From Botryllus schlosseri (taxonomy: Eukaryota): DNA of 64,000 bases. Position 1 is the stretch's first letter; each line of letters starts with the position of its first letter. The notes beneath the pieces are model-generated. The model made no database searches. It saw only the letters and a list, made by a program, of their open reading frames with translations, and was not told the DNA's origin. Location: NCBI GenBank assembly GCA_051294905.1, contig CM119372.1:22198001-22262000 (forward strand), in the 5' to 3' direction. Both the position numbers and the translations under genes were made by a program. Below, piece by piece: positions 9,652-40,542 of the stretch.

Positions 9652-9969
<318 letters not shown>

Positions 9970-10138
9970 CTAAAATCCCTCGATGGCAATGATGCCCGTG
10001 CCGGTATTACGGATGTACTGGGATGGGAGAAGTTATGCCGATGGTGCAATTACGGCACGGATCTATCGCGATAAAGATGACATGACTATGTTCCAGTCAA
10101 AAACTCAAAAGGGAAAGATGCAAATTAGCATTGTCCAA

Positions 10139-12451: not shown

Positions 12452-13134
12452 CAGGGACGGGCAACTTCTCCAGTTGGCGGGCCGGATATACGAAAATGGA
12501 GTACTTGCCGGGCCGGATTCCTAAATCGATAGAGTAATCGTGAATTTATCCTCATGTAAGGAATGAATCATATATAATGTGAATTTTAAGTTGAAAGCAT
12601 AGAAGCCAAGACAGTATTTAATGCTTGTAGTATCCCGAATACATTTTAATTTCTTGATAAAAAAAACGCAGATAGGGGTTTAAAGTGAATCCAAAAAATA
12701 TCACGTTTAACATTGTTCGAAGTATGACGGCAAAAAATAGTATTTGATAATTTACCGTCACTTATTTCTCATTCCCTAACATCAACATATACACTGAGCA
12801 GCATATATTAACAGTGCAATTCACAGCTTTCAATTTAGAAATACAATTATTACGCTATAGAATACAGCTAAAATTTTTGACTCAGCCCACCAACGTATTT
12901 TCGGCTTCTCATTTGGCCAACGGAGATAAGTAATAGCCAACGCCTGAGCTAGATTGTTAATTTTCATAGTCGAAAATGTTTGCTCGCAAATATCTGTAGA
13001 CCTGAACATAGCAAGTAAGTTTCATGGCCACCTTTCTCTGGCCGCGGGTCACATTATCATAAAAGACCGGAAACTCTCTGCGGGGTGCTCAAAATCCCGG
13101 ATCCGGCCCGCGGACCGTATGTTGCCCGCCCCTG
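12452..13134. mobile_element. hAT MITE in GOLPH3 intron 3
   Basis: Ends cagggacgggcaac / gttgcccgcccctg. TSD atcgatgt/atctatgt (7/8). Confidence 0.8.
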
Positions 13135-13640
13135 ATCTATGTGGAGCACCAAAAGGCGTTCAAGGATATGCACCATGTATCCGAAAGCTTTCAAAAGATA
13201 ATGAATTTTTTGGCAACAAGAAATTAAAATATTGTTTGGGCAATAGCTCACAGCGTTGCTTGTATCTTCTCTAGAATAGACATCACGTTTATCTACTAAT
13301 ACAGCAGGAAAACTGGAGAACACCGATATCCCAATGGCAGCATCTATTTATTATGTTTGTCTAACACATATAGAATCACAGGTATCATAGGATTTCTGAA
13401 TATTAAGAATGTATCGACAAAGAAGATGGAATTTATTCCTACGTTATCCCAGATTCAAGTGACGGAAGCAAAAGTGCCAACCCAGGATATTACTGTAATT
13501 AACAAATCTAATTACCATATTTTGACAACCTCACTTCATTCGCAATTCATAGGACACTAATGATTTTATGAATGTATAATGTCAGTGATGCCATAAAACT
13601 CAAATAACATCTTACGAAAAGGACAATGTTAGACACCGAC

Positions 13641-13733
13641 CTGTACAGATTCTTCCGTCTCGCCTTTTTTGATATGAGTGAGGGCCTCGTCTAGAATAAC
13701 ATCTCCAGTCGGTGCATCATTTTTACAGCGGAC
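13641..13733 (-). CDS. GOLPH3: GOLPH3 exon 3: VRCKNDAPTGDVILDEALTHIKKGETEESVQ
   Basis: Conserved DAPTGDVxLDEAL motif. cag acceptor, gt donor, 93 nt, phases 0/0. Missed by the ORF track. Confidence 0.95.
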
Positions 13734-14210
13734 CTGCCAGAACAAAGTGCCATCACTTGATCCCCATTGTAACAAGGAGTAGCAAGCCAATGCACATCAA
13801 TCCAAAAAACAGATGTCAGTATCCAAACGTACCTCTGTTCTTCAAACTTAGTGCACTTTAGCATACGACATTTGAAATACCAGCATATGCAGTGGACTGT
13901 ATTTGTGAGTTATCCCACAGTAAAGTTGACAAAAAACTATGACATGACCCATCGACATGTTGAGTTGTTGACGTACGACCACTGAGATTCTTCAATGCAG
14001 TTCGTACCCAACATCACAGGCCTGTGCCGTCTGCCAGCATCATGTGGAGAAGTCACAACTCCCTGCTATCGACTAGTTAAAACACTGCTGTCAAGTTCAA
14101 GTTTGCTAGGTACCATTACATCACAGAGACCACCCACATGTCAACATGTTCTCAGTGATAAAATTGGCTATACAGTATATTGTTTGCAGTGATTTCAAAG
14201 CTTTGTACTA

Positions 14211-14576
<366 letters not shown>

Positions 14577-14925
14577 CTACTTGCAAAACCCCATATAGCA
14601 ATGGTGCTAATATATGCACATCAAATCCCAACTTTGGAGACTAACCCTAACTGGCAAATTGAAGACTTCGGACAGTGCAGAGGTGTTGGTCAGCAGCAAA
14701 TTGATGGAGAAAACTTGTATCCATTACAACATTGCAATATCTTTGCGCAAGAGAACCTCATGGCCCATGGGTTAGGACTAGGCCTATCCTTCGAAGATTT
14801 ACTAACAATAGTTTCTTACCAATGCTGTTAGGGTATAGCCTACTGCAACACGTGACTGGATTTGATATCCTATTTGCTAAATTTCATCCCAAGTAGCCTA
14901 TAGTGAATGGACAGTGAATACATAC

Positions 14926-15020
14926 CGTTCCTCGTCGCTTTTTTCATCATCACTCTTGTTCTTCTTGGTGCTTTCCGCTGCCGAGTTAGCAAGACGGCGT
15001 TTCACAAGACCAGTCGACAT
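14926..15020 (-). CDS. GOLPH3: GOLPH3 exon 1: MSTGLVKRRLANSAAESTKKNKSDDEKSDEER
   Basis: ATG at 15020, N-terminal GLVxRR motif as in GOLPH3/Vps74, gtatgt donor in phase 2 matching exon 2. Total CDS 846 nt = 281 aa + stop. Confidence 0.9.
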
Positions 15021-17922: not shown

Positions 17923-18307
17923 CAGTGGTTCCCAACCTTTTTCGACTCATAGCCCCCTTATCAATCTCGACACAAATTCTCGCCCCCCAATATTTATGGA
18001 TCCGAAAAAGAGGGCATATAATCCGGAAATTTATTCCCTTAACTCTGATCGGTGGTGAATTTACTAAGGGCTATTTTTGCCGAGGTGGTAGGTGCTTGGA
18101 AAACCTGTTTCCGCGTCTACGTTCCGTTGAGTTTACCTTTTTTTCGTGTCATACGCAGAATAAGCCGTCTCCACATGCATATTCTGATCGTGTTAATTGA
18201 CTATATCTCACTGGATGTTCTAACATTTTCACCCCTTTGGTATTTTCAAGACCTTGTTGCTCAAAATTGCCCGCTGGGGGCGATATCACCCACATTGGCA
18301 ATCACAG
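17923..18307. mobile_element. Degenerate CAGTGGTTCCCAAC hAT MITE
   Basis: Left end and gggcgatatc subterminal motif match 56761..57150 and 23966..25301. Right TIR decayed. Confidence 0.65.
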
Positions 18308-21300
18308 GGTCACTCTACTATGTTTTTGCAATTTTCCATTGTAGAAAAGATCACGGTTTGACGACGAGTACCTTGCAAACCCAGGCCCACGCATACAATA
18401 TTAAGAATAAATGCTTGATTTTGTTCTTGTAGTGTATGGCTTAATTTTATATATGTATGACTAGAAGATGGTTCACTGATATTGAAGTACAATGCATGAC
18501 AAAAACCTCAACTTATTGAATTTGGATTATCAACATTTTATCAACAAAGGAAAAGATCAAATCTTGTGTAGATCAAAAAGTCTTAAAGCAGCAAGCATGT
18601 AGCAATAGTAACTGCAGATGGGAGCAATATTACTTATGGTAGGCTACATCAGGAAGAATTTCAGATCTGAGAAAAAGCTGGTTCCTGGTTTGCATCAGTC
18701 AATGCAGTTGGTATTTGCGACACCCATACAGGCAGCCAGAAAAAAACACTATCAGCTCTTAACGAAAAATGAGCATCACAAGATGCATTGAGACCAGGTG
18801 AATAAGTGCGAAATATTATAATTCATTTTTTCATTCTTGACATTTGACATTAAATTTAATGGAATAGGATAGGAATTTCCCTTGTATGACAAACCAATTT
18901 TTGGTGTGATGCTACTAGAATCGTGCGACAGCTTGTATTTCCCTGAAAGGAATCTGTCACAAGAGACCAATTGCGCAACTTTTAGCAGGCTTGAGTGATG
19001 CATACAGTATATACAAGCCAATACAGATACAGTGCTATCATAACTACAAAGCAATATATACCGAGGGCATAGGAAAATGTTGGTATTTGCGATTAACTGA
19101 TCCCTTCAGCAAAAATCAATTTATAGCATAAGTGGTGGGCCAGACGACAATCCATAACTGAACAGGGCACACTGCACATGCAACGTTTGATTAAGTCTGC
19201 AATTATATGTGCCACAGACACCAATTCCATACTACGGCCGAAGAGTGGTACTCATTAAATAATATCATCGTCCCAGCACGTAGTTAACGCGGACAAAAAT
19301 AAATAGTTGCGATTCCTTCTTTTCTAACCCTTGATTCCCCGTGCAGAATCTCGGTACCATTTCAGCAATAAATGTGATGATTCTCAGAGTGCAGTAAGGT
19401 ACTTGGTGTGCGGTGAGAGATTTGGCGAGCAATTGAGCACAGGACACTGATTCCATACTGGGTATTTGGCCGGCAATTGCTCGATAAACATGTTGCCATG
19501 TTGACATGGTACAATACACTCCAATCAATAAGAAATCGCTGTATGTGGTAGTGGTATGCACAATTACGCGAGCTTCGTCAGCTCGTCAGCAGATATGTAG
19601 GAATATGTACTAGTAGCCTAAGTTAATCGGCAACTGAATGGACATGGTATGGTTAAGTAGGGTTAATAACGCTTTATTCCCATGATTCAAGAAACATATA
19701 TAGCCTGCGGTGTCAACGGCACGCAGGATCACACCGACTTGGTCGCCAGTTGCACGCGGTCACGGGTGATTGGTTTCATAAAAAAAATATATATAGAAAT
19801 TTTTTTTAAAAAAGGTAGTGTTCTCAGCCACCACAAATGCTACATTGCAGTTAATATGTGGTATACAACGTTTTGACCTGATCCTTTGGCCAGGATCTGC
19901 TGACTTTAGTATCTATTGGTAAAGTACTTGCACCTTGCCAGTTGCTAACCATAAGCATCTGATCTCTTGTTACTGACTATGCAACGTCGGCTCTGTCACG
20001 CGAGAAAAGCTCCCATCATCACGCAGGATTCATTTTAAAAAATGCACCGAAATTCCATATTACGATTACTGTGTATCATTTTAGTCAAATAACGTATCCG
20101 TGGAACACAGATTATGCGTCACTTTCAGCACAAAGGAGCTCTTATCATCAGGCATTTACATTTCTACGGCCAACCGGACAAAGCAATTGAACCGGTAGTA
20201 TTTGAAACCAGTCGCCAACCTGGCCCAGGAATACACGCTGAATGAAAAGTAAAAAATATAATGCAAAAGGACAAGCAACAAAATGAGGTGGCGATTATCT
20301 TATGTCAATGTGACGGAATCCATGTTCAGCAGCTATACATTATTACAAGACAACTATCCGTAATTTTCCGTGTTAATATGAGGACATAATTATTTAGAAA
20401 GAAAGAGACATGTATAACCTGCAAAAATAACCAACCACATCTCACGTATGTAATCAAAACATAATAATCGAAGGCGGTAGTCGCACTACCGGATTCATAG
20501 GTGTCGAGCAAGCAGATTGTCAAGCCATGAAAGAAACCTCGAGTCCATGGCAAAAATACTGGTATCGATACGGTTTTGGGATCGAGGATGACATATTCTA
20601 ATAAAACCTCGCGTTTTGTCTGTCACTAGATATATAGCCTAAAATATGAGGAATTGTGATATTTCGAGAAAAAATTCAAATAAACAAAATATCTTCTCCT
20701 TATTCTTGAGAAAAAATATGACCCCAAACTTCCACGTCAAAATATATGTGAGCCATACAAGAAGGATGGTATTTCTTTCGAATGTGACAAGTATTTCAGT
20801 TCAGATTACTGTTAGAAATTTTATTCAAGTCAATACACCACAATATTGCGATACAATGAGAAGATAGGAAAGAGTCGAAACGACGTGGAGTAGTCTTTGA
20901 AAATCTGGTCCAAGGCGATGTAAAGAGAGAGGGCATGCGCACTGAATGAAAAGTAAAAACTATATGCATTTATGCAACACATCCAAAATGTCTCGGCCTT
21001 CGCCGTAGTTCCCACGATGCCAGTTATATTTATTCAGAGCTATCAAGATAAATTTATCTATATTGGTATTTATCATCTAAAATAAAATCTAAAATCTTGT
21101 CGACAGATAGCGCCAAAGGTGGACGAAACTATAGGCCCTTTTCATAACGGATTTACGAAACTCTTTCGGGAACAAGTTCCGAAACAGGCGATGTTCACAT
21201 AGAGAAAAAATTACCGAAACAGTTCCGGGATAAGAGCGCGTTCATACCTATTTAGAGTTACCGCGAACTTATGTTCATACAGGTCGTTTTTTCGGTAAAT

Positions 21301-21319
21301 TCGCGGGAAATTACTACAG

Positions 21320-23755
21320 GGTTGGTTCGATTGGTTTGAAATAAGGACAAATATGTTAGAAATGAGGTGAGTCTCATGTCAGAAATGAGGATAGTCATGT
21401 CAGAAATGAGGATAGTCATGTCAGAAATAAGGATAGTCGCTATATTCACTATAAAGTCAGTTACAGTACCAGGCACGACTTTCTAGTGCTGCTAACCCAG
21501 TCCGAACACATCCCAGACATGATGTCCAAACACGCCCCAGACACGATGTCCTGGTATCAACACAGGCCGAACACGCCCGAGACATCATGTCCGAATGGCA
21601 TCACAGGCCGAACACACCCCAGACATAATGTGTGAATGGCATCATAGGCCGACCACATCCCAGACATGATGTCCAAACACGGCCCAGACACGATGTCCGG
21701 GTATCAACACAGGCCGAACACGCCCAAGACACCATGTCCGAATGGCAACACAGGCCGAAAACACCCCAGACATGATGTCTGAACACGCCCCAGATACGAT
21801 GTCCGGGTATCAACACGGGCCGAACACGCCCAAAAGACACCATGTCCGAATGGCAACACGGACCGAACACGCCCCAGACACGATGTCCGAGTGTCAACTC
21901 AGATCCGAAAACAACCCAGACACCATGCTTGAATGGCCGAACATGTCCCAGACACGATGTCCGATTGGCAGCACAGGCCGAACACACCACAGACATGATG
22001 TCCAAACACGCCCCAGATACGATGTCCGGGTATCAACACAGGCCGAACACGCCCTAGACATCATGTGTGAATGGCAGTACAGGCCGAACACCCCCCCCCC
22101 CCCCCAGACATGATGTCCGAACACGCCCCAGATACGTTGTCCGGGTATCAACACGGCCGAACACACCCAAGACACCATGTCCGAATGGCAGCTCAGATCC
22201 GAAAACAACCCAGACACCATGCTTGAATGGCCGAACATGCCCCAGACACGATGTCCGATTGGCAGCACAGGCCGAACACACCACAGACATGATGTCCAAA
22301 CACGCCCCAGATACGATGTCCGGGTATCAACACAGGCCGAACACGCCCTAGACATCATGTGTGACTGGCAGTACAGGCCGAACACCCCCCCCCCAGACAT
22401 GATGTCCGAATACGCCCCAAATACGTTGTCCGGGTATCAACACGGCCGAACACACCCAAGACTCCATGTCCGAATGGCAGCACAGGCCGAACACACCCCA
22501 GACATAATGTGTGAATGGCATCATAGGCCGCAGACACAATGTCCGAACACAGCCGAGATACCATGTTTGAATGGCCGAACATGCCCCAGACACGATGTCC
22601 GATTGGCAGCACAGGCCGAACACACCCCAGACATGATGTCCAAACACGCCCCAGATACGATGCCCGGGTATCAACACAGGCCGAACACGCCCAAGACACC
22701 ATGTCCGAATGGCAACACAGGCCGATAACACCCCAGACATGATGTCCAAATACGCCCCAGATACGAAGTCCGGGTATCAACACGGGCCGAACACGCCCAA
22801 GACACCATGTCCGAATGGCAACACAGGCCGAACACACCCCAGACACGATGTCCAAGTATCAACACAGGCCGAACACGCCCAAGACACCATGTCCGAATGG
22901 CAACACGGACCGAACACGCCCCAGACACGATGTCCGAGTGTCAACGTCAACTCAGATCCGAAAACAACCCAGACACCATGCTTGAATGGCCGAGCATGCC
23001 CCAGACACGATGTCCGATTGGCAGCACAGGCCGAACACAACCCATACATGGTGTCGGAACGCCCCAGACACGATGTGCTATTGGCAACACAGTCCCAACA
23101 CCCCCCAGACACGATGTTAATAAGGTTGGTCGTGTTTGAAATAAGGTCAGTCTAGTGTTTGAAATAAGGATAGTCATGTTAGAAATAAGGATAGCCATGT
23201 TTGATATAGGGATAGTCATGTTTGAAATAAGGATAGTCTCATGTTTGGAATGAGGATAGTCATGTCAGAAATGAGGATAGTCATGTCAGAAATAAGGATA
23301 GTCGCTATATTCACTATAAAGTCAGTTACAGTACCAGGCACGACTTTCTAGTGCTGCTAACCCAGTCCGAACACATCCCAGACATGATGTCCGAACACGC
23401 CCCAGATACGATGTCCGGGTATCAATACAGGCCGAACACGCCCGAGACATCATGTCCGAATGGCATCACAGGCCGAACACACCCCAGACATAATGTGTGA
23501 ATGGCATCATAGGCCGACCACATCCCAGACATGATGTCCGAAGTCGCCGCAGACACAATGTCCGAACACAGCCGAGACACCATGTTTGAATGGCCGAACA
23601 TGCCCCAGACACGATGTCCGATTGGCAGCACAGGCCGAACACACCCCAGATATGATGTCCGAACTCGCCGCAGACACGATGTCTGAGTGTCAACTCAGGC
23701 CGACACGCCCCAGATATAATGTCTGAATGGCATCATAGGCCGAACACGCCCCAAT
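21320..23755 (+). repeat. Left arm: modular minisatellite array (A-B-A'-B')
   Basis: A = 21-nt gtcagaaatgaggatagtcat tandem block plus linker. B = 24-nt ccgaacacgccccagacacgatgt units with optional 17-nt inserts (ccgaatggcaacacagg, ccgggtatcaacacagg), giving ~106-nt higher-order units. Confidence 0.95.
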
Positions 23756-23965
23756 AACTTCGCTATCTCGTGTCGCAAATTTATAAGGTTGAACTTACTT
23801 AATACAGCCATAATGCACATTTTACCTCATTTTGACGTGTCGCAAGCAATAAAGCACAAGTATGTTTTGGAATGTAATCAAATGTATTGCAAACAAGAAT
23901 ATTCATGAATGCTAGCTAGGAGAAATCTCAAGATCATGCGTTGTCATGCAAATATTTGTGTAGTC

Positions 23966-25301
23966 CAGTGGTTCCCAACGTGGGCGATATCGCCCCCCGG
24001 GGGGCGATTTGTCGGTCCAGGGGGGCGAAAATAGCCAAGGGGCGATAGGGGGGCGAAAACGGACGAAGGGGGCGATAGGGGGCGATGGCGCGTTGAAATG
24101 GCTATATTGGCGTCCATGACCGTAACTGCCACACCCAAACCCCAATTGGGATGGGGGCCCGAGATCGAAGGAGGCCCACAATTCTTTCGTGAATTAACAA
24201 TAATTATTGTGGAAATTTAGGCAACTTTTTCAAAAAAATTCCGCGCTGCGCGCCTTTTCTTGGTCTCATATTTCTTACTTATTGGATACCCTTCCTCCAA
24301 GAAATAATATGCATGAGTTATATAAATGGGCATCTCGGCATCAGTCACACCATGTCGCACCAAGAGATATGTATAGTCTCAGGCCATGTAACATGCGACT
24401 CCGAGAAGTGGGCCAGAACGCGAAAACCTTAGGGAAAAGGCCTGCCTTTATGCTGACCGACTTCGATATATATACGATAGACATATATATTTAATTGTAT
24501 ATATGCGCCTAAATGGCTGGCGCCAAATGTTCCTGTCCTGGCAATCAGAACCCCACAAAATTATGCCATCTCGCAGAGAAAAATTAATTGCCTGTGCAGA
24601 CATACCAATTTCAACTCGTGTGAATCTTTTAGTTTAGTACGTATGGGCGATTTGAATATCTTTTGGCATAGCAGACAGGCCACAAAATGTCATTACGTAA
24701 CGAAGTCATTATACCCACGGGTTCGCCCGAATATGTTAAATTATTATTTACGGGCCCTACATTTTCCAAGACACCTAACTCAGCTTTACCGGTAAATCTG
24801 AATACATGAGCAGAGAGAGGATAAGAAATTGATAGAAATATATATGCAATTCCCGATCATATTGACCGATTCAATCATACCGATGGAAATTTTTCGCGCT
24901 TCGCACGAATTAAGCCGACTAACTAATGAGTCCAACAATTTGTGCTGAGAAGTAGCGGTGAAGAGGTATCGGGGGAGTTGGGTATGAGGGGTGCAGAAGT
25001 TTGCTTTATCGCCCTATGGAGGGGGGGGGTCAAGACCAACGTATTGGGGGCTGACGAAGTGCTGTTATGGTCCTTTTGGAATCAAGTCGGAGAAATCACC
25101 TTTTTTGTTACTCAGCTCACCAAAATTTAGCTGGGAAAGTGAAATTTCGCGGTCGAGCCGAAAAGTTGACCTTTTTTCTTAGTCAACTCGCCGGTGATTT
25201 CAGTCTGTATGCCCATTCTTCGGTTCCCCATATTTGGGGGGCGATGATCGGCGTGGAGTTTGAAAAGGGGGCGATGAGCCAAAAAAGGTTGGGAACCACT
25301 G
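23966..25301. mobile_element. CAGTGGTTCCCAAC hAT non-autonomous element
   Basis: 14-bp TIR, perfect TSD gtgtagtc. Longer than the 390-bp relative at 56761..57150. Confidence 0.9.
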
Positions 25302-25329
25302 GTGTAGTCTGTAGGAGTCGACACCATGC

Positions 25330-25700
25330 GAGTGCGTTCAACGCTTCCATTTGAAGTATTTCATCAAATTCAGCTCCATCTTCCTCGTCTGAATTGATAG
25401 ATTGTGAAGGCAGAGGCAGGCTATTGTCACAATTATATTCTGAGGTTCTTCCTTGAATATAGGCAATGCGCGAGATATTTTTTCAACACCCAAAGCACTG
25501 TGCTCTATGCCAGAAAGGGTAACATTATGTATGAAAACAATAGTGACATTTTTCGGTCAATGTTCTTGGCCATAATAGTGGCGTGAATAAGTAAGTCCTC
25601 AGTGGATAGTCAGCATCTCCAAAAGCATAATCTTCATCATTTAATATTAATATGCCAAAATGCTGGACAGTTGTGTCTTCAAAAATCGGAATCACAGTCG
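25330..25700 (-). pseudogene. Harbinger/HARBI1-like transposase relic
   Basis: FGDADYPLRTYLFTPL resembles the GDSGYPLRxxLxTP motif. Downstream frameshifted HNVTLSGIEH..(A)FG(V)LKK resembles HxxTRxxIExxFGxLK. Confidence 0.65.
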
Positions 25701-27339
25701 CACTCTTTCTTCGAATACTTTGCGATAACGTACTGAACATCTGCCAGATACTTCCTCGGGGTTCTATTCTGATCACCCGTCCGTAAATTTCAACAACTAT
25801 AGCAATTTCATATTCCTTCACTGCATCGCTTTACTATACAGCATCAGCAAGCAACTAAAAACAATAACTATCTGGCCACAAATATCCTGCGTTGTAAACC
25901 AGGGCTGTCAAACTCAAAATTACGTCGCGGGCCGGATTCAAACATTCGAAATGCTCGCGGGCCACCGGCTTTGCTTTTCACTTGAACATATTGTTACCAA
26001 GCTAGCAAGAATAAGTAGAGCAACACTTTGATCGCGAACAATGAAATTGACGATGATGATTGGTTGGTTCAATGCACTTATGAACCGCTGCTAAAACAGT
26101 CGCGGTAACGACGATACAAGTTCACTTATTTCTATGCTCCATTTACTTGAGTCGTAATATATCGTTAACCGTATGTATGCGTTGTGAGGATTGATGAATT
26201 CCAGAGATTCAACTGTAAACGCGGACTTTTGAATTTGTTGTATTTTATTTGTATTATTAAATCACGATTCAGGTTTCTCTACATTACGGGGACCTTTTGA
26301 GTCAGAAATGATACAGCACCGCGACCATGCACTGATATTTGTGTAAGAGTCGTATGAATTGATTTTATCATTGGATTAAAGCTGAAATCGCAGATACTTT
26401 GCTGTATAGTACCCCATTCACCAATGTATTGTTCGAAGCTGGTCCAGAATGATCATTATTCCACACAACAGTGGAACTAAAGTCCCAATTACACAGTGGA
26501 TGCCGGGATCTGATCATCGTGTTTCGCGATGCGAATGGAGCAGCGGGCGATCAGAATAATATTCAGGACTTCTAGCCTATGATCTACGAGGGCTGTAACT
26601 GCCACACCGAAACCCCCAATTGGGAGCTCGAAGGGGTCCAATATTATTTTGTTGGTCGTTTGTTAGTGGATATTTATTCAACTTGGAAAATTCTGTCACG
26701 CTTCGCGCGATTTCATGCCCCATTATGCCTAGATTTTAATATCATCACTCATCAGTAAAGAAATATGCGCATATTTTAGAGAAATATGCATATCGGCGCT
26801 GTCGATTACCACGCAATCAACAGGATTATAACTCTAAGATAAGAGGTGGGCCACAACACATTTTCAAACCGGAAAAGGCCTACGACCAAGAATAGGCTGA
26901 GAGCCCCTGGGCTTTACCTGTCGGGTAGAACCTAAGCTATATCCTATAGCCGCTATATAGACTATACATTGGGTTCGATCTGATAGGTATGGCCCCTACC
27001 CTGCGCTCGGAATATCAACCTTGATTTTATCCCGAAAATAGTACATACAATTATTAGTTCGATAAATAGTTGAGTGGTCATTGGGCGCGATTCATGAGCG
27101 AAATAATTCTAATTAGGTCAAGTCAAAACCCGGCATGAGCGACCATACTTCGACCTTTACCGCATCGTCTTTAGTACAATGCTTAAATATGGAAGCGGCA
27201 ACCATGAATGTCTGAGAGGAGACGGCGGTGGAAAAAAGGTTGAGAATCACTGGAATATACCGAAGAAGCTAGAGAACATTGATGCCATCGGGTATATAGA
27301 CCTATAGCACTAAAACAGTGCCATTCAACACACATGTAT

Positions 27340-27910
27340 TTGTATTATATTTTATAAGAGCCAGGGCACCAGAAAACCCTCAAAATCGCCAAGGAACTAG
27401 AAATCGGATTCCCCACGTACTAGGGATGGGATGAATCTCTAAAAGGTTCAGGTTCGTGTGAACTTGAACCTTTTTGAAATGTTCTGTGTGAACGCGAAAG
27501 TGAAACTATGCCGTCAAGTGACGTCATATTGCCAATTGCAACTCTGCATTTCGAAAGGATTGATGGATTGGATTGTGGTACACTTACTTTTGTGCAGGAA
27601 CTATTCACAGGGATCATTTCAGATCGAAATACTAGTTAAATATGTGGATTCGACAAGGAATGCAAGAAAATGATGGAGTTCAGCTATGGTGAGCCAGGCA
27701 ATGCTATCATGGCAGAAAAGGGATTCACCATTGAGTCTGAAATCAAGAAATTGAATCTAGATTTAAATATTCCTTCACATGATTTACACAACGTCAAATG
27801 CCTGAGCCAGACTGTTCCACAACAAGAAAGATGGCGAGAGAACGTATTCATATTGAACAGCTGATCGGAAGAATCAAGGAGTATAAAATTTTGTCCGGTG
27901 TCATACTATG
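27340..27910 (+). pseudogene. ISL2EU/Harbinger-group DDE transposase relic
   Basis: Fragments ELFTGIISD, EPGNAIMAEKGFTI...LNIP and TRKMARERIHIEQLIGRIKEYKILSGVI in shifted frames, resembling GDxxMADKGFxI and ARxRIHVERxIGRIK. Confidence 0.7.
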
Positions 27911-27929
27911 CAGCATTGTGTATCACAAC

Positions 27930-28390
27930 CAGAGGTGGTCAAAGTAGTCAAGAAATCTACTCAAGTAGAAGTAGAAGTAGCGACGAAAAAAATCTACTCA
28001 AGTACGAGTAGAAGTACTTCTTCCATGAGCAACCTAAAACTACTTGAAGGTGAAGTAGAATTGACTGACTTTAAAAGTACTCAAGTAAGTAAGTAGTTGT
28101 GAAAATGATCCTAATTCGTTCACGTGGATTGTGAACAGGTGACGAGCTTGATTCATATTAATGCATACCAACAGGCAACAGGTATCCAATTTTCGATAGC
28201 ATAAGCATTCATTCTCATTATGATAGTATTGATATGGAAATGCTATACTAATCCTCTGTTTTCTCGAACAGCACGTTTTAGAAAATAGCATGGTACGGCG
28301 CCATCCCCCATATTATAAGGCCCGTAGTTTAGTCGAAGAGTAATACGGAGAAGTTATATAGAATACGGTGTAAACACTTTGCGCAATTAG
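27930..28390. mobile_element. Truncated CAGAGGTGGTCA MITE
   Basis: Reverse-complement homologue of 52640..53132. Confidence 0.75.
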
Positions 28391-29451
28391 TAAGAGATCA
28401 AGATCAAGAGATCGAGCACACGCAAGGTCGTAGCCAGAAAAACAATTTTTTTTTTGGGGGGGGGGATTATGGCTTTAGGGGAGCTCTCCCGTGGGAACAT
28501 CTCGCAGAACCGTACATCCTGCCATAGGCAATTTCATCACTACCCTTTATACATACGATTCTTAGACGCACACAGACACATACCCTATGGAAGCTTCCAG
28601 TTGCCAACTATAGCTTATCTATATCGAAGGCTTCGGAATACATGGGTCGGATTTATGGTGGTCAATCATTTCGGGAGCGCACTTTGCGGAGTAGCATGTA
28701 GCATACTTTATATATCTTCGTGTGTCCCGAAACGGTAGCCTAGTTGCCGGAGCTAACAGTTCCCAACCGCCATACTGAACTGACACTCCTACAGACTCAA
28801 TCAACCCAACGACCTCGGGCTACACTAGTGTATCTACTGGTCCTGTTGTATTCTCATAATTGAGAATGCAGCTAAATTCAATAATGGGTATTTGCGGAAT
28901 AATTTTTTTTCGTGACACCGATAACAAAATCAAGACATGAACGGACACCAAATCGCGCCAAGCGCGAAGAAAAATTTTAGGTTGCATACTTTTGCCCCAA
29001 AATACTCTAATATCTATTGATTTTACGAAAATTTTCAATAAATTTGGGGGGGGGCAACCGCCCCTTTCGTCCCCCCTGGCTACGCCAGTGCGTCCAACAT
29101 CCAACTTCGCATCGGCATTTGAAATTATAGACGTGTAACCAGGAGTCTTCGATATTTATATGTGTGAGCCCCAAATATTCCTGTCCTTGTCAAATAAACC
29201 CAGCGGCAAACACAGGCGACCCGCAATAAATGCAAGGGACATTAGTATCGGCCGAACTCATAAATTAACTTTGAATGAAACTACAATTTACCAATACCGA
29301 TCTTGATCGAAAGCTATTTCGCAAATACAATTTTAAAGCTGGCAGGTCAACGGAACCACCAATAAATATAGCCGTCCAAGTCTGAAATCTGGAAATCGGC
29401 ATTGTTCCGAATGATCGCTCGATAAAATTCCATTATCCTGGTCAATTATTC

Positions 29452-31892
29452 ATTCGGACATCGTGTCTTAAGCGTATTCGGCCTGTGTTGATACTCGGAC
29501 ATCGTGTCTGGGGCGTGTTCGGTCCGTGTTGCCATTCGGACATGGTGTCTTGGGTGTGTTCGGCCTGTATTGATACTTGGACATCGTGTCTGGGGCGTGC
29601 TTGGACATCATGTCTGGGGTGTGTTCGGCCTGTGATGCCATTCGGACATGGTGTCTCGGGCGTGTTCGGCCTGTATTGATACCCGGACATCGTATCTGGG
29701 GCGTATTCGGACATCATGTCTGGGGTGTTATCGGCCTGTGTTGCCATTCGGACATGGTGTCTTGGGCGTGTTCGGCCTGTGTTGATACCCGATCATCGTA
29801 TCTGGAGCGTGTTTGGACATCATGTCTGGGGTGTGTTCGGCCTGTGCTGCCAATCGGACATCGTGTCTGGGGCATGTTCTGCCATTCAAACATGGTGTCT
29901 CGGCTGTGTTCGGACATTGTGTCTGCGGCGACTTCGGACATCATGTCTGGGATGTGGTCGGCCTAATGCCATTCACACATTATGTCTGGGGTGTGTTCGG
30001 CCTGTGCTGCCATTCGGACATGGTGTCTTGGGTGTGTTCGGCCGTGTTGATACCCGGACATCGTATCTGGCGCGTGTTCGGACATCATGTGTGGGATGTG
30101 TTCGGACTGGGTTAGCACTAGAAAGTCGTGCCTGGTTCTGTAACTGACTTTATAGTGAATATAGCGACTATCCTTATTTCTGACATGACTATCCTCATTT
30201 CTGACATGACTATCCTCATTTCTGACATGAGACTATCCTTATTTCAAACATGACTATCCCTATATCAAACATGGCTATCCTTATTTCTAACATTACTATC
30301 CTTATTTCAAACACTAGACTGACCTTATTTCAAACACGACCAACCTTATTAACATCGTGTCTGGGGGGTGTTGGGACTGTGTTGCCAATAGCACATCGTG
30401 TCTGGGGCGTTCCGACACCATGTATGGGTTGTGTTCGGCCTGTGCTGCCAATCGGACATCGTGTCTGGGGCATGCTCGGCCATTCAAGCATGGTGTCTGG
30501 GTTGTTTTCGGATCTGAGTTGACACTCGGACATCGTGTCTGGGGTGTGTTCGGCCTGTGTTGCCATTCGGACATGGTGTCTTGGGCGTGTTCGGCCCGTG
30601 TTGATACCCGGACTTCGTATCTGGGGCGTATTCGGACATCATGTCTGGGGTGTTATCGGCCTGTGTTGCCATTCGGACATGGTGTCTTGGGCGTGTTCGG
30701 CCTGTGTTGATACCCGATCATCGTATCTGGAGCGTGTTTGGACATCATGTCTGGGGTGTGTTCGGCCTGTGCTGCCAATCGGACATCGTGTCTGGGGCAT
30801 GTTCGGCCATTCAAACATGGTGTCTCGGCTGTGTTCGGACATTGTGTCTGCGGCGACTTCGGACATCATGTCTGGGATGTGGTCGGCCTAATGCCATTCA
30901 CACATTATGTCTGGGGTGTGTTCGGCCTGTGCTGCCATTCGGACATGGTGTCTTGGGCGTGTTCGGCCGTGTTGATACCCGGACAACGTATCTGGGGCGT
31001 GTTCGGACATCATGTCTGGGGGGGGGGGTGTTCGGCCTGTACTGCCATTCAAACATGGTGTCTCGGCTGTGTTCGGACATTGTGTCTGCGGCGACTTTGG
31101 ACATCATGTCTGGGATGTGGTCGGCCTATGATGCCATTCACACATTATGTCTGGGGTGTGTTCGGCCTGTGCTGCCATTCGGACATGGTGTCTTGGGTGT
31201 GTTCGGCCGTGTTGATACCCGGACAACGTATCTGGGGCGTGTTCGGACATCATGTCTGGGGGGGGGGGTGTTCGGCCTGTACTGCCATTCACACATGATG
31301 TCTAGGGCGTGTTCGGCCTGTGTTGATACCCGGACATCGTATCTGGGGCGTGTTTGGACATCATGTCTGTGGTGTGTTCGGCCTGTGCTGCCAATCGGAC
31401 ATCGTGTCTGGGGCATGTTCGGCCATTCAAGCATGGTGTCTGGGTTGTTTTCGGATCTGAGTTGACACTCGGACATCGTGTCTGGGGCGTGTTCGGTCCG
31501 TGTTGCCATTCGGACATGGTGTCTTTTGGGCGTGTTCGGCCCGTGTTGATACCCGGACATCGTATCTGGGGCGTGTTCAGACATCATGTCTGGGGTGTTT
31601 TCGGCCTGTGTTGCCATTCGGACATGGTGTCTTGGGCGTGTTCGGCCTGTGTTGATACCCGGACATCGTGTCTGGGGCGTGTTTGGACATCATGTCTGGG
31701 ATGTGTTCGGACTGGGTTAGCAGCACTAGAAAGTCGTGCCTGGTACTGTAACTGACTTTATAGTGAATATAGCGACTATCCTTATTTCTGACATGACTAT
31801 CCTCATTTCTGACATGACTATCCTCATTTCTGACATGAGACTCACCTCATTTCTAACATATTTGTCCTTATTTCAAACCAATCGAACCAACC
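29452..31892 (-). repeat. Right arm: inverted copy of the same modular array
   Basis: Reverse complement of the left arm with the same A-B-A'-B' order and shared rare variants (cccaaaagacac at ~21830 vs gtgtcttttggg at ~31520). Unit copy number differs. Confidence 0.95.
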
Positions 31893-33554
31893 TTCCTCGG
31901 AAATTATGGCCAGTATGAACGCGATTCTCCGTAAGTGTTGATAGTTACGAAACCATCTCTGTGGGGTGTTCCAGTTGTAATATGCGTATGGAAAACGATG
32001 TGGGAGAGGCATATTCGTCAGATGCGGAGAAGTTGGCTCCAACTTTTAGCTATGGCATGTTGCGGATATGCCTTCTCGGTGTGTATAGGGCTCTATACTC
32101 AATATACCTGTATCAGTAATAGAGCCCGACTGCCCGAGCATGTTCCTGGCTTGTATATTATCAACCGAAGCTGAGAGCAGAAACTGAAAGCCAGCAAAGA
32201 GTATAGAGTCCTGGAATGAAAAGAACTACCAATCACATCTGCGTACGACAAAGTCAGTTTATCTTTGTGATTGCTGTATGATGGTTTGGAGGTAAATCTA
32301 ATCTTATGTACACTGTAGAGAAAAACCAGGGAATTCGAGAAATCCGTGAGAGAAACATTTGGTATACTCTGCGACGAGATTCGAGACCATAACGAAAAGC
32401 AGCCAGCAAATTATACGAACTCAATTTCTCTTGCTTGCTGAGTAGCTGTCGCTCTTGGAGGCTAGCCAATGTCTCAATGAAGCCAATCGTTTATAGATCC
32501 AGGTAAACATCAGATGTATTTTAAGAAGGCAACTGTCACAAGTTGATTTTAATAAAAATGATTGCTGGTGCTTAGGGCTAGCCAGTAGCCACAATGATTC
32601 GAGTACTCGAATCTTAATCGAGTATTAACTTTGATGATTCGAGTCGAGTATTAAAATACTATTTTTCGAGTACTGAAATTATACTGAAAGTTGAATTACT
32701 GACGAGAATTATACCGTAGTTTTGATACTATTTTCCATTGAGTAAGCCTTGAAACCTTGATTGGCCGTGTCGCAACATACGAGATATAGTACAAAGCTAC
32801 GAACGTTGCTGGAAATAACGCATTTGCAAAGTCATGACCATCCCATAACACTGTCAAGCAGTGCAATGAAAACGGTATGGTCAAAAAAACACCAAAGTAT
32901 CTTTAATGTGACAGACAATAGGCGTTATGTTCTTTATGGTGGCATAAAAGGTAGCCTACACATTTGAAATTTGGCATAGTACATTGTGTTGTGATGTCAT
33001 CATGATGATACTCGACTCGAATCGAAGCGTAAGTGATTCAGAATCGAATTACTCAGGTACTCGATTTTGCCCAGCCCTAGTGCATATAGTAATATTTCTA
33101 TATTTGTCATGGCGGAATGTCAGCCATTTTTTTCGTAGCATACCACTACAAAAAGGTCAGACAAATTTGGTCTTGAATCATTATGTTAGAAAAAGAAGTC
33201 TGAAAAACCAATTGTTCTTGCCAAGTAGGCTACTTTCTGTCACAAAAGTAAGACCCAAATTGATAGAAAATAGACTTAAACCGGAAACTGAGCAGTTAAC
33301 ACAATGACTTGGACTCGAGCCATAAAACCATGACTCGAACTCAACGCTCTGGACTCGGATTTGACTCGGTGGTAAATTGAAAATGACTCGACTTGAATCT
33401 AGTCAAAACTATTGAAGTGGGATCGGCTTGTGACTTGTTACAACCCTGCTCACTTATTAAGACTGAAATTGCTGAAAATGAGACCAAATTTGTATATATA
33501 TTTTTTGTAGTGTAGTCAGACATGTACTGTACATCAACCTACTCATTTAGTTAC

Positions 33555-34455
33555 TAGAACTAAGTAGTTCTAGTTGTGGATTTGAAAAAGTGAATAGTTT
33601 CTGGTTCTAGTTGCGGATATTTGAAAGTGAGTAGTTCTAGTTCTAATTGCAGATTTTGAAAAGTTGACAGTTCTAGTTTAGGGCCGGCCAACCCGTGGCC
33701 CGCGAGATAATTTCCGAAATTAGTAGTATTATCAGAAATGGATTGCACAGACTGTGAACTTGCAAAACCAATCAAAAATTTGATTAGTCTGGCCGCAACA
33801 CTTGAGATGTGACGACTGAAATATCAGTTCCGACACATTGGTAGATCTATGAGCCAGTCACATTTTGGTAGATCTTCGTACACTACAATAAAGCAGAATA
33901 CTTTGCGATAGATTTATCAAAAGTAAAAATTTTCTACACGCTTAGCGCAACATCTTGTCACTCGATTTCTTGCTTTTAATATTGTTACCCCTTTGTAAAA
34001 ATGAAAGAACGCGTAAGGTAGCAGATTGAGTCCAACTATATATAGATTCGCGACCTCCCGTTTGCGCTCGCAGAAAGACCGTCGACTATGAAACCTAGGC
34101 ACAAAGTGATTGCCGCATGTTGGACGAAGCTTTCGATATCGATATCTCCAGGTGCAGAATAGTCCAGTCATTGCAAACTGAGCCCAGCGATATACAGCAG
34201 GCTTTCAATATAGTCAAGTGACAATATTATTAATTTATCAACTTCGAAAAATTTTTGCGCTTCGCGCGGCTAGTGACTCGCAGAATAGTTCGTCAGTCGA
34301 ATGTGGCGATTTGGCTGAAAAGGTTGGCCACCCTTGTTCTAGTCGCTAGTTAGAAAAATTGAGTAGTTCTAGTTAAAGTTGGGTATTTTGAAGTTCTAGT
34401 TGCTAGTTAGAAAAATTGAGTAGTTCTAGTTAAAGTTGAGTATTTTGAAATTCCA
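33555..34455. repeat. ~30-nt imperfect tandem repeat (agttctagtt...tttgaaa.tgagt) interrupted by a MITE
   Basis: Units at 33555..33678 and 34337..34455. Confidence 0.6.
33679..34336. mobile_element. hAT MITE
   Basis: Ends tagggccggccaacc / ggttggccacccttg. TSD ttctagtt/ttctagtc (7/8). Confidence 0.65.
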
Positions 34456-36151
34456 GTACTTTTGTACAAGTCTTGAGTGTTGTGGGTGGATAAAAAATTA
34501 CCACAGCAACATTTTTACAAACATGCATTTGCTGCATTCAAGATTTTCAGAATGACTTCATGATTGAGAGCCAGAGGGTTCCGTACTAGCCTACATAACT
34601 GATGACGCAGCCTATCCCTTTCAGCCCTGGCTCATGAAGCCTTTTCCCTGAAACACAAACAGAGTATAAGCTAAAGCTAATTTCAAATATATATAAATTT
34701 CCTTTCTGCTGCCCTTAAAATTCAAAATTGTCTTTTCAGAAACATAGCAAAGCACACATGAAGGTTGAAATATTTTGGTCGACTAAAGGCGCGGTGTTCG
34801 GCTTTGCTCAGAAACTGCAATCCTCTAGGCCAGAATGATACAGAGGATGGTATACGCAATGAAGACAAGACCTGGTGGTATCGCTGGCCCAGACGTCGGA
34901 AATGCCCTGTGTGACTTTCTCAATAAACAATGCTCTTGCTTGACCAGATGTGTTGGTGCTGTTTCATTTTATTCATGAGAAAAACCATAACTTGATGCAC
35001 ACTTGCACAGTTCCACCTTTTTCATCAGTATCGTCCATCTAGACCTGCGAAAAGATAAGATTAAGTTACACTTGCCTAACATTGCATAACAAAGGAATGA
35101 TTTGGTTGTAGCAAGAAAATGAAGGCATAGGTGAAAACCAAATTATGGCTTGGATGGTGTACCCAGCCAGTTGATACAATTTCAATTTTGGTTAGTGATT
35201 CAGAGCGAAAGACATCATTCACTGCTGTGCTGCCACTATCAAAGCGGATGTTACTAAATCCCCTTTTAAGTAGGCGTATATGACAGTGACTAACCTACGC
35301 ACAGCATATCCGTGGTTAGAAACTTGCCTTTGATGTAACAAATTTGGTAAGGGTTAAGATCGCCTACCAAATTAGTGTTGAAGGCCTAAAGTTTTCAGGC
35401 AACTCACCCAATGCTGCATCATTTGGAGATGGTGTTCTACCTTTTTAGCCGTGCTCTGTTTACAAAACCACAGAAAAAAGAAGCTGACTAGTAGTCAGTG
35501 ACTACGTATTGTGAGCATACATCATATAAATCCAAAAATAATGCATTCCCAACACCATTACACAAGAAGATCAATATGCCACAATAGCTGACCTCGAAAT
35601 AGAAGCAGCCTGAATGAACAGCGCGTTACCGTAACTAAAAGTTTGATTGACAGCGTTCCGGGAACCCAGCTGCGCCATTCGTGTTCATACTCAGTCGGTC
35701 TCGTAAAAATCTCCGAAAATAAGCGCGTTCATACCGCCCCGAAACACCAGTGTCATGTTCACATAGAGGGGTTCCGGTAAACATTTTCGAGAAATGTTAT
35801 TCCCGGAACCCCGGTATGAAAAGGGCCATAGATAACTATAACCTACGAAACATTAGTCATATCCAAGGTCGACGTCACACTTGCCAGTATCAGTTTATTA
35901 ATATTTTCATCATTTCGAAACACCACAAAACTGCGATACAATGAAAAAATTGGAAGGTGTCGAAACGACTTGGAGTAGTCTTTGAGATCAGACACCCACC
36001 TTGGCCTAGGCGAAGTAGAGAAAGGCATGCACACTGAATGAAAAGTAAAGCAGATAATATAAAAGGCATGCGGCAAAATGAGGGGCATGTGGCGGAAATC
36101 CAGATCGATATTAGGTCGTGGTCCGGTAATCCTGAAGGCTGATCATTTGGC

Positions 36152-36554: not shown

Positions 36555-36824
36555 TATTTGGCTAAAAGGCAATTTGGCAACTTTTGATCGGTTTTCCGAT
36601 AGCGAAATTTGACAAAATTGGTATCAATGGGAAGCTACCGAGGCACTGATTACGAAAATATAAATTTTATCGTACTCGTGGTCCCAGAACACCAAAAATT
36701 CAGCCCCGAATTTTGATTGTTACTGAGTTTGGTATTGTGACGCGATAATGCCATCTGGAAGCAAGTTGGGAGCGCAGCGCAAACTGCAATCGTATTGGCC
36801 AGTGTTGCGCAAGCGATTGAACAT

Positions 36825-37601
36825 TAGGGCTCTTCAAAAATGACTTTTTTTCTCAAATCGTACCGGCTACTTGATAAAATTGTTAGGTTACCTAATTTGA
36901 GCCTACACACCAAATTTGGTTCAATTCCAACCAGTAGCCGCATTGCTACTGGAGAAGAAAGTTTCTATTTATTATATTTTACATTATTGTTGATATACAA
37001 TGTTCTTTCCAATTCTCTACTAGTTGCTGACGATTACCCCTGACGAGTGTCAGCCGAAAATATTCGGGTTCATTTCAATATGAATATATTATTCAATTGT
37101 ATATTGAAGTTCTGTACCTCCAAGAAGCTCTCCATATAAAAATAAATAAGAAAAAATTTGAAAATTTTCTGTTCACCCCATGAAAGTGTTGAGTTGTCTA
37201 TAGAAACGATGTTCATCAAATTTGGATCAATTTCAACCAGTGGAAGCGGAGTTATTGCCGTCGAAAAATTTGGATTATGAATAAAATAGTATTTACGGTG
37301 ACCAATTCTTTAATTATTTATTATAGTGGTACTAATTTATTCAAATCCAAATTTTTCGACGGCAATACCTCCGCTTCCACTGTTTGGAATTGAACCAAAT
37401 TTGGTGAACATCGTTTCAATAGACAACCTAACATTTTCATCGGGTGAACAGAAAATTTTCAAATTTTTTGTTATTTATATTTATATATTAAATAGAAACT
37501 TTCTTCTCCTGTAGCAATGCGGCTACTGGTTGGAATTGAACCAAATTTGGTAGGCATAGCCAGTACGATTTGAGAAAAAAAGTCATTTTTGAAGAGCCCT
37601 A
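36825..37601. mobile_element. Palindromic TAGGG-ended MITE
   Basis: Long inverted arms starting tagggctcttcaaaaatgac. Perfect TSD ttgaacat. Partial copy at ~53490..53871. Confidence 0.88.
37036..37069 (+). ncRNA. Minimal type I hammerhead ribozyme motif (Penelope-like retroelement relic)
   Basis: accc-CTGACGA-g(tgtcagc)c-GAAA-ATAT-TC-gggt: complete core, 4-bp helix I, palindromic helix III. Sits in a ~160-nt insert that breaks the host MITE's symmetry. Confidence 0.6.
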
Positions 37602-37849
37602 TTGAACATTCACTCAGAGGTGGTCAAAGTAGTCACCCTCGCTACTCAAGTTTAAGTGGAAGTAACGCCGGAATTTCTACTCAAGCAAAAGTAGAAGTGG
37701 TGGTTCACAAATCACAAGTAAGTAAGTAAGTGAGTAGGTATTCCACGCGTATCGTCTATCTCGGCAAGCCGGTGAAAATTACCGTCAAATTGCCTTTTGC
37801 CAAATGGAAAGTGTGACGTAGACCAATCGCAGTGAGCCGTGAGATGACA

Positions 37850-40087
37850 CCATAGTGTCCTATATGGTGTCGACACAGGAAAATCCCACGCCTCAGTGAA
37901 ATTGTATCACGTCACAATTTCCATTTGGCTACAGGCAATTTGACGGTCATTTTTGACCGGCTTGCCAAGCATTAAATTTGGTAAAACGGGTATCAATCGA
38001 AAGCTGGCTCTGCACTAGGGTTGTCCATAATTTGGAAAATCTTACAAATCCTCGGTTGTAATGTCTTATTCGATAGATTATTGATAAAAAACGACACTGA
38101 GCCTGAAAGAAGCTCACAGAAAGGCCGTTAAGATTTCGTGCAAAGCGTTTGAAAGTAACTGCCGAAGAATGGGCGTGCCACCGACCATAGAACGGCGAGA
38201 ACACTAGTAATCAAGAAACCACGGCTCTTGATTGGATAATCGGCTATGCTTCAATGACCACGTCAGCAGCAGCTTGCTGATTAGGTGAACAAGGAGTCTG
38301 CTACTGGCGGCGATTCTGAAAGCGCATTTTATGTAGGTTGACAGATAATGATATAGGATTGATTCAAGGTATCTTGAGGTACGAAATACATGATGTACAA
38401 ACAACTGCTGCTTCACAAAAACGTCTAAAGCATGACCGCTTCATTGTGAAGGAAACCGCTGTAGCCTATATGCCTTGTTTTCAACGAGGGAAAGCATAGG
38501 CGCTTATGCAAGTGGCGACGGATTCCTAGTTTCAGAAATAATATATCATTATTGAATACAAAGATAAAGCTTAACAATGACACTATAAGTTAAGTGATCT
38601 TATTGGGCTCAGGTTGCAATACATAGTTGAAGTTTTGAATGCTCTAGCGATCGGCTGAATCAGAAGGTTAGGCTTAGCACTCATCAGATGTTTGCAGCAA
38701 ATTGAATTCACTTGTAAATGTTTTCAAAGTCCCTAATGATGTCGCAGAAACGAGGTTTAAATGCAAGCACAGGCCCTGCTTGATATGATATGCAAACTAT
38801 GCTGGATACTATGCACTATGCAGCATTGTCTGTGTTTACCTTTACACCCCTTTTCTGCGCGATTATTAAGGAATTTGACATATCATATCCAGCATATTAT
38901 GTGCTTACTTTTACGCCTCTTTTCTGCGTCATCATCAAGGACTCTGACAACACTTCCAAGTGAATACAGTTTTCTGCAAGCATCTGACAAGTGCCAAGCA
39001 TAACCCGCTGATTCAGCCGACCCTTAGAGCTTTCAATACTTCAACTATGTACTACAACCTGAGCCCAATGAGATCACACAAACTATAGTGTCATTGTTAA
39101 GCTTTATCTTTGTATTCAATAATGATATATTATTTCTGAAACTAGGAATCCGTCGCCACTTGCATAAGCGCCTATGCTTTCCCTCGTTGAAAACAAGGCA
39201 TATAGGCTACGGCGGTTTCTTTCACAATAAAGCAGTCATGCTTTAGACGTTTTTTTGAAGCAGCTGTTGTTTGTTCATCATGTATTTCGTACCTCAACAT
39301 ACCCTTAATCAATCCTAAATCATTATCTGTCAACCTACATACAATGCGCTTTCAGAATCGCCGCCAGTAACAGACTCCTTGTTCACCTAATCAGCAAGCT
39401 GCTGCTGACGTGGTCATTGAAGCATAGCCGATTATCCAATCAAGAGCCGTGGTTTCTTGATTACTAGTCTTCTCGCCGTTCTATGGTCGGTGGCACGCCC
39501 ATTCTTCGGCAGTTACTTTCAAACGCTTTGCACGAAATCTTAACGGCCTTTCTGTGAGCTTCTTTCATGCTCATTGTCGTTTTTTATCAATAATCTATCG
39601 AATAAGACATTACAACTGAGGATTTGTAAGATTTTCCAAATTATGGACAACCCTACAGTCTGCACTGATTACGAAAATATGAATTTTATTCCGCTCGTGG
39701 CCCTGGAACTCCCACAATCAGCCTCGAATTTTTCATTGTTATGGATATTGTCATTGTGACGCAACAATGCTGTCTGGCTCTTTTTCTCTTGAGCTACTCT
39801 CTCGTTTCGCCAGACAGCATTGTTGTGTCCCAATGCCAATCTCCGTAACGATGAAAAATCCGAGGCTGATTGTGGGAGTTCCAGGGCCACGAGCGGAATA
39901 AAATTTATATTTTCGTAATCAGTGCAGAGTCAGCTTTCGATTGATACCCGTTTTACCAAATTTAATGCTCGTCAAGCCGGTCAAAAATGATCGTCAAATT
40001 TCCTGTAGCCAAATCGAAATTGTGACGTGAATCAATTTCATTGAGGCTTGAGCTTTGCTTGTGTCGACAACATATAGGACACTATGA
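37850..40087. mobile_element. Palindromic MITE P1 (CCATAGTGTCC ends, 5-bp TSD), carrying a 1.64-kb insert
   Basis: TSD tgaca on both sides (37845..37849, 40088..40092). Superfamily unassigned. Confidence 0.8.
38016..39655. mobile_element. Second copy of the long-palindromic TAGGG element
   Basis: Near-identical to 10139..11786. Imperfect TSD ctctgcac / (ca)gtctgcac. The empty site ctctgcac|tgattacg is present at ~41979..41994. Confidence 0.9.
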
Positions 40088-40542
40088 TGACACTAAGGTG
40101 TGAACACAAGCCCTCACGGCTCACTGCGATTGGTCTACGTGAGGGGTGTCAAACTCAAATTGCGTCAAGGGCTGGATTCAAGCCTTCAAATCGCTCGCGG
40201 GCCGGACCAGTCAACTGATTCCAAAATTTTTCCTCGTGCTCTTGCTTTTCACTTGAATACCTTAAGAGCATATATAGATAATACGCGGATCGGTTTTTAA
40301 AGTAGGAGTAGCAAAATCGCATAACCTCTATTCACGAACAATGGAATTGGCTAAAATACGATGATTGCCAGTTGAATACAGTTAAGAACTGCTGAAACAG
40401 TGGCGTTAACGAAGATATAAGTAGCCATATTCTATGCTCCCCTTGATTTAGTCGTAGTCTGGCGTTAGCCCTGCATATGGGTTGCGAGGAATACAAGATA
40501 TTTAATTGGAAACGCGGACGTTAAAGTTTGGTTTATTATGGG

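Follow-up and report, generated by a model that had tools for sequence, protein, structure and literature searches.

A 10.6-kb foldback element of Botryllus schlosseri with an exact 8-bp target site duplication and ends offset from its inverted arms

What kind of insertion consists of two 2.4-kb inverted arms around a loop of transposon debris, and where are its ends? The question is raised by a foldback element in a 64,000-nucleotide stretch of the Botryllus schlosseri genome (assembly GCA_051294905.1, contig CM119372.1, positions 22,198,001 to 22,262,000, forward strand), referred to here as the window. The window has 41% GC and is animal DNA that is rich in miniature inverted-repeat transposable elements, or MITEs. 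An earlier, sequence-only reading had bounded the element by its arms, at 21320 and 31892, and had reported no obvious target site duplication (TSD). We find one insertion with an exact 8-bp TSD, a matching empty site, ends that are offset from the inverted repeat, modular arms, and no recognisable transposase of its own. We consider it probable that this is a single insertion of a gene-less, 10,585-bp foldback DNA transposon, likely moved by a Mutator-type transposase that is encoded elsewhere. The features are collected in Table 1.

Public data from 4 of 24 runs, comprising three contig sets (X1, X5, and X15) and one RNA read set (X24), were aligned to window positions 20500-32800. Of 909 joints, 1,191 variant rows, and 87,112 pieces, statements on these alignments cover the 15, 40, and 24 listed, respectively. 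Contig depth does not equal copy number, a caution attached to the alignment method, and the depth baseline of X15 is a single contig.

Table 1. Positions in the window of the foldback element, its parts, and its host
Feature	Positions	Strand	Details
Host, presumably Harbinger-like	21134-35827		4,101 bp without the foldback element and one TSD copy
Left TSD copy, GGAAATTA	21306-21313	+	exact 8 bp
Right TSD copy, GGAAATTA	31899-31906	+	exact 8 bp
Whole foldback element	21314-31898		10,585 bp; from empty-site joint and TSD position
Left terminal motif, CTACAG	21314-21319	+	6 bp, outside the inverted repeat
Right terminal motif, GAGGAA (read inward)	31893-31898	-	6 bp, outside the inverted repeat; this copy
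Left arm	21320-23752	+	2,433 bp
Left arm, outer modules	A 21320-21426, spacer 21427-21514, B 21515-23119	+
Left arm, inner modules	A' 23120-23291, spacer 23292-23379, B' 23380-23752	+
Right arm	29454-31892	-	2,439 bp
Right arm, outer modules	A 31786-31892, spacer 31698-31785, B 30350-31697	-
Right arm, inner modules	A' 30178-30349, spacer 30093-30177, B' 29454-30092	-
Loop	23753-29453		5,701 bp; nested transposon debris
Nested MITE-type element	23966-25301		1.3 kb; CAGTG ends, own 8-bp TSD GTGTAGTC
Candidate decayed Harbinger/HARBI1-like transposase fragment	25330-25830	-	Atlas features 0.90 to DDE_Tnp_4 clusters only
Decayed, frameshifted DDE_Tnp_4 transposase fragment	27592-27914	+	PF13359
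Nested high-copy MITE-type repeat	27916-28393		84% to 52642-53146 of the window

Insertion footprint and ends of the element

Each copy of GGAAATTA lies exactly 6 bp outside its arm, and the terminal 6-mers are not complementary to each other. Among 200,000 pairs of positions drawn at random from the window, 55 gave an exact 8-bp match at symmetric offsets of 0 to 10. The joint from 21305 to 31899 was present, among the joints listed, in all four runs; it skips 10,593 bases and leaves 8 letters that fit on either side, which means that the empty host contains a single GGAAATTA. Support came from 5 contigs in X1 (depth 7,403), 2 contigs in X5 (8,515), 1 contig in X15 (111), and 13 reads with 10 different starts in X24. 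Relative to the unique flank, the depth of this joint was approximately 74-fold in X1, 93-fold in X5, and 30-fold in X15, which is what a host present in many copies would give. The ends of the element are 21314 and 31898, rather than 21320 and 31892. The empty site, which the sequence-only reading had hoped to find in other copies of the host, is indeed present there with contiguous flanks and defines the TSD. Both TSD copies already stood in the flank text quoted when none was thought obvious. An offset-end foldback element thus hides its TSD from any inspection that adjoins the inverted repeat alone, which matters for annotation. A 9-bp TSD carrying a single substitution would be a less simple reading than the exact 8 bp. 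Folding of the empty site gave -19.6 versus -18.6 kcal/mol for the two models and did not discriminate between them.

The flanks belong to one host element, which we take to be Harbinger-like from its GGCCC ends and 3-bp TSD. At its termini 16 of the first 17 bp match, and ATA flanks it at 21131-21133 and 35828-35830. The proposal that the flanks continue a single Harbinger-like element interrupted by one insertion was therefore sound, while its description as a small hairpin was not, the host being 4.1 kb with its right end at 35827. The depth of the host form without the foldback element exceeds that of unique DNA by tens of times, which marks an abundant family. In X1 and X5, full-depth contigs stop aligning exactly at 21134 and continue with 26 and 80 other letters, respectively. 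The host appears to be absent from this locus in these two data sets, which come from two other individuals, as an empty host site predicts, and their element contigs would then derive from other loci. Host and foldback element at the window locus are likely polymorphic and recent.

The left end could also be followed in relatives of the element through the aligned-end distances in the variant rows, a column that counts inclusively, as calibrated on row 21073 (value 62, in a piece ending at 21134). On this reading of one table column, X5 rows 21353 (40) and 21358 (45) indicate that the alignment of a family contig, apparently a relative in another individual, begins exactly at 21314. Rows 21350, 21353, and 21358 of X1 and X15 (31, 34, and 39) place it at 21320, and the X5 row 21350 (34) agrees with neither. 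The contigs starting at 21314 or 21320 carry alleles that differ from those of the window. These values, for one end and from one column, fit a family whose left end is at 21314, with two end types that diverge at 21320.

Modular arms and a loop of foreign DNA

The anatomy drawn by the sequence-only reading was confirmed for the arms. They are 97.1% identical over aligned columns (2,074 matches, 62 mismatches, and 15 gaps), and their outermost 232 bp are exact inverted complements, the perfect repeat starting with GG and ending with CC. Each arm is an internal head-to-tail duplication: block A, of 21-bp units, is followed by a spacer of 88 bp and by block B, with units of 24, 32, and 41 bp, and then come A', spacer, and B'. 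The outer A blocks are identical between arms, as are three of the four spacers. Unit numbers differ as had been claimed, with 45 units in the left and 39 in the right outer B block and 11 and 19, respectively, in the inner ones. The inner blocks, of 373 and 639 bp, are 93.5% alike, compared to 97.4% for the outer blocks. The rare variants said to be common to both arms were also found, as 18 of 60 distinct unit variants are confined to the two outer B blocks. Another 4 of the 60 are confined to the outer and inner blocks of the right arm and 1 to those of the left arm, so variants are both common to the two arms and spread along one arm. Long multi-domain inverted arms with tandem repeats, as found here, are the structural mark of FB-like foldback transposons, and the insertion of both arms as a single unit, with its TSD and empty site, also agrees with that class.

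Folding of the first 387 bases did not stand out from that of shuffled sequence (z -1.64; 6 of 100 shuffles equally good), a 32-base arm pattern had no matches in metagenome contigs, and the open reading frames within the arms are frames left open by the repeat units. The starts of the A' blocks (23120-23145 and 30324-30349) resemble the outer terminus of the inverted repeat, so that each arm may have grown by duplicating an older terminal module.

The loop had been described as 5.7 kb of decayed transposases and MITEs, and this holds: it contains a DDE_Tnp_4 remnant, a second candidate remnant, MITEs, and additional repeats. The PF13359 match, at 27780-27914, has an E value of 2.5e-5, just under the curated cut-off, and 0.0031 in a six-frame scan. 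The candidate HARBI1-like fragment had no Pfam transposase match and no named homologue in two sequence searches. In these, a 101-amino-acid frame of the loop gave 0 of 21 candidates in one search and, in the other, two matches that were not named homologues, one an unnamed near-copy of 70 amino acids and the other a repetitive protein. The nested element with CAGTG ends is presumably of the hAT type, judging by its signature, and has relatives in the window at 56749-57150 and 17923-18018. The nested high-copy repeat is the bin of highest depth in X1, X5, and X15. A six-frame Pfam scan of the loop, with stops read as X, found no Mutator or Mutator-like element (MULE), FLYWCH, KDZ, PHD, or protease domain, a scan that decayed pieces may escape, and Rfam identified no families in 21000-36000. 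FLYWCH accompanies the MULE transposase in Phantom elements. PIF/Harbinger elements have a 3-bp TSD flush with the terminal inverted repeat (TIR). The TSD here is 8 bp, and on this ground the Harbinger-type fragments of the loop were rejected as the element's own transposase; they are passengers.

RNA depth in X24 was 0 to about 5 across most arm bins. Two peaks were considered as expression of this copy and rejected, one at 22105-22108 that has adapter-like loose ends beside a run of C, and one at 25432-25842 that carries other alleles. The latter peak, of about 580 in depth and with reads of both strands, differs from the window at 25766 in almost all of that depth. This suggests that a relative of the Harbinger-type remnant is expressed elsewhere.

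Does the loop travel with the arms? The left arm-loop junction is spanned with 0 differences by contigs in X1 (23674-23888, approximately 27 times flank depth) and X15 (23654-23888, approximately 6 times) and is thus multi-copy in appearance in two of the three contig sets. Nested junctions inside the loop are likewise covered with 0 differences in X15 (25230-25697) and X5 (25726-25946), each at approximately 5 times flank depth. Against a shared cargo, the right junction is touched by one X15 contig that is 92% identical and has fewer than 31 bases in the arm. The loop is likely cargo that multiplied together with the arms.

Gene conversion had been proposed to homogenise the arms, and there is some sign of arm-to-arm exchange. 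The window alleles at 21350, 21353, and 21358 are present in both arms. In X1 they account for depths of 362, 261, and 261 out of approximately 4,430 to 4,520, in X5 for 62, 0, and 0, and in X15 for none; the inner junction in X1 is approximately 10 times deeper than these end alleles. The pattern is compatible with a sub-lineage in which one arm passes new variants to the other by copying, and a small subfamily explains the data equally well.

Relation to known foldback systems

Published systems are compared here on the available portions of their descriptions. Mutator superfamily elements make TSDs of 8 to 11 bp (PMC6446971), a range that includes the exact 8 bp found here. Tm1 of root-knot nematodes belongs to the Phantom subclass of Mutator/Foldback and has a Phantom-type MULE transposase. 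Asymmetric motifs of 7 bp lie between its TSD and its TIR, its two ends differ in repeat number, and 45 of 53 elements have TSDs of 8 to 10 bp; its authors note that sub-TIRs like those of Tm1 are also known from other Mutator-like elements (PMC3169594). The element in the window is like Tm1 in having short asymmetric motifs between TSD and inverted repeat, composite TIRs with a unit number that is unequal by end, and a TSD within 8 to 10 bp, and Tm1 elements are likewise mostly non-autonomous with nested insertions. It differs in having ends of 6 bp rather than 7 bp, a TSD of 8 bp rather than the usual 9, and 2.4-kb arms in which two repeat systems occur and the whole module is duplicated, whereas Tm1 has 1 to 9 units of approximately 14 bp. 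It is also known here without a transposase copy.

Muta1 of Aedes aegypti makes TSDs of 8 or 9 bp, and the interiors of its derivatives are of foreign DNA. Both the binding of the transposase and excision are promoted by the subterminal repeats of Muta1, and binding rises with repeat number (PMC5225508, PMC5499845). The likeness extends to the type-2 foldback TIR with subterminal repeats and, for Muta1 derivatives, to unrelated internal DNA and unequal repeat numbers. The letters CTAC are common to the left end and to the terminal motifs of Tm1 and Muta1, a match that we discounted as too short. In Tetris of Drosophila virilis, the arms reach 1.7 kb, the middle is non-coding, and the TSDs are 8 to 10 bp long (PMC4079207). 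Rehavkus makes 9-bp TSDs (PMC6446971); the element here has 8 bp exactly and 9 bp only with one mismatch. Kilobase modular inverted arms with tandem repeats, a variable non-coding middle, and an assignment to or beside Mutator are common ground with Tetris and Rehavkus; the available descriptions of both leave asymmetric ends unmentioned, and the element here differs in lacking a PHD or protease gene, a PHD finger being part of the Rehavkus transposase. Rehavkus-like termini in Tribolium exceed 11 kb (bioRxiv 10.1101/2024.12.02.626372), so the arm size here is no record. Each feature of the element has a parallel in published accounts of Mutator-type foldbacks, and the double-module 2.4-kb arms and the 5.7-kb loop that looks multiplied make it a large example.

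By analogy with Muta1 and Tm1, a transposase supplied in trans would bind the 21-bp repeats near each end, cut at the asymmetric terminal motifs, and insert the element by a cut-and-paste reaction with an 8-bp staggered cut. Unit numbers would shift by slippage and unequal exchange, and copying would take place from arm to arm as well as, within a single arm, between its outer and inner blocks. The loop may represent a piece of genomic DNA, rich in transposons, that took the place of the original gene in an ancestral copy and was later multiplied along with the arms. The sequence-only reading had suggested an unclassified, cargo-carrying foldback family with no obvious TSD. The loop does seem to travel with the arms; the TSD is an ordinary one of 8 bp, and the ends are of the type described in the available text on Tm1 (PMC3169594).

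Several observations weigh against a Mutator-type foldback transposon of this form. No transposase has been linked to these ends, and the loop scan found no Mutator domain. The 8-bp TSD suits Zisupton as well (PMC12730594), and those of Tm1 and Rehavkus are mostly 9 bp in the available text. The right 6-bp motif is seen in the window copy only, one insertion site alone is seen in full, no listed piece spans the element, and no contig joins both arms. At 23787 and 23842, all of the depth listed for X5 belongs to another allele, with no sign of the arm-loop junction version.

An unlikely and more novel reading has a Zisupton/KDZ or undescribed helper moving a giant Pack-type chordate carrier, in which 5.7 kb was captured once and spread to tens of loci while arm-to-arm copying kept the two ends of each copy identical; the element would then be a foldback version, with kilobase arms, of the helper's superfamily. 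That the same anatomy depends specifically on a Zisupton/KDZ transposase seems quite unlikely. Fish Zisupton elements reportedly have subterminal inverted repeats and minisatellites and a length of about 11 kb. The 8-bp TSD (PMC12730594) is shared with the element here, and homologues occur in lancelet, sea star, and mussel (PMC9297572). However, the six-frame scan found no KDZ domain in the loop, kilobase modular foldback arms are undescribed in the available text of PMC12730594, PMC9297572, and PMC7599744, of which the latter two give no further information on Zisupton ends, and in the limited library searched no paper paired Zisupton with the term "subterminal."

A foldback derivative from the P (Galileo-like), Merlin, or hAT superfamilies is distinctly improbable. 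The TIR lies directly next to the TSD in such elements, whereas 6 non-inverted bases separate the two on both sides here; the GG and CC at the limits of the perfect repeat are reportedly also found in Merlin. Foldback arms did arise in several superfamilies (PMC3169594), including that of Galileo, which combines a P-type enzyme with TIRs of up to approximately 1.25 kb, tandem repeats, and a 7-bp TSD (PMC3573991).

Two independent solo arms flanking local DNA, or the product of a local inversion, would account for the inner blocks being unequal in length and less alike than the outer ones and for the lack of a contig connecting both arms. We regard this as very improbable, as the two arms lie within a single TSD, the empty site shows an uninterrupted host, and the host does not contain the loop DNA. 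It is scarcely credible that an unclassified foldback family inserted without a TSD: the bases adjoining the perfect inverted repeat are not duplicated, and a minor form joining 21319 to 31893 could exist beyond the 15 of 909 joints listed, but in four of four runs the listed joint of the empty site takes out 10,593 bp rather than 10,573, with one GGAAATTA remaining. An assembly artefact is equally hard to credit, even with a structure unspanned by any piece listed and data that include no long reads, given 62 substitutions and 15 gaps between the arms, a TSD that is exact and agrees with the empty site, and an arm-loop junction with 0 differences in two other runs.

For tunicates, no description of such a foldback family was found in searches on ascidian or Ciona foldback and Phantom or Mutator foldback elements in a limited library, in part of titles only. 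An early report is said to describe a modular foldback element in Ciona and was not found in the literature searched. If the depth signals hold, the foldback element of the window would belong to a family that is young and polymorphic and transports captured DNA by the kilobase, and minisatellite turnover inside transposon arms could be watched in it.

Neighbouring features of the window

The GOLPH3 gene lies on the minus strand with five probable coding exons at 8736-15020, and the foldback element is approximately 6.3 kb upstream of its probable first coding exon, for which the match is weak (E value, 0.006). Among the 120 matches listed for a GOLPH3 exon, the highest identities to named sequences were from two Ciona species (90%) and Clavelina (88%), and the best-scoring match was from a nematode (71%). 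A 1.65-kb, nearly all-palindromic element with TAGGGTTGTCCA ends occurs in two copies that are 97% identical, at 10139-11786 and 38016-39655. The former sits within a GOLPH3 intron and has an exact 8-bp TSD, TTGTCCAA; the latter has no directly visible TSD. Two open frames at 2441-3371 look by eye like parts of a decayed transposase, for which Pfam names no transposase family. The region 36556-44735 is a crowded nest of palindromic MITE-type repeats and includes direct duplications of approximately 0.8 to 0.9 kb that are 96 to 97% identical, pairing 39659-40542 with 41980-42866 and 41297-42099 with 42859-43657.

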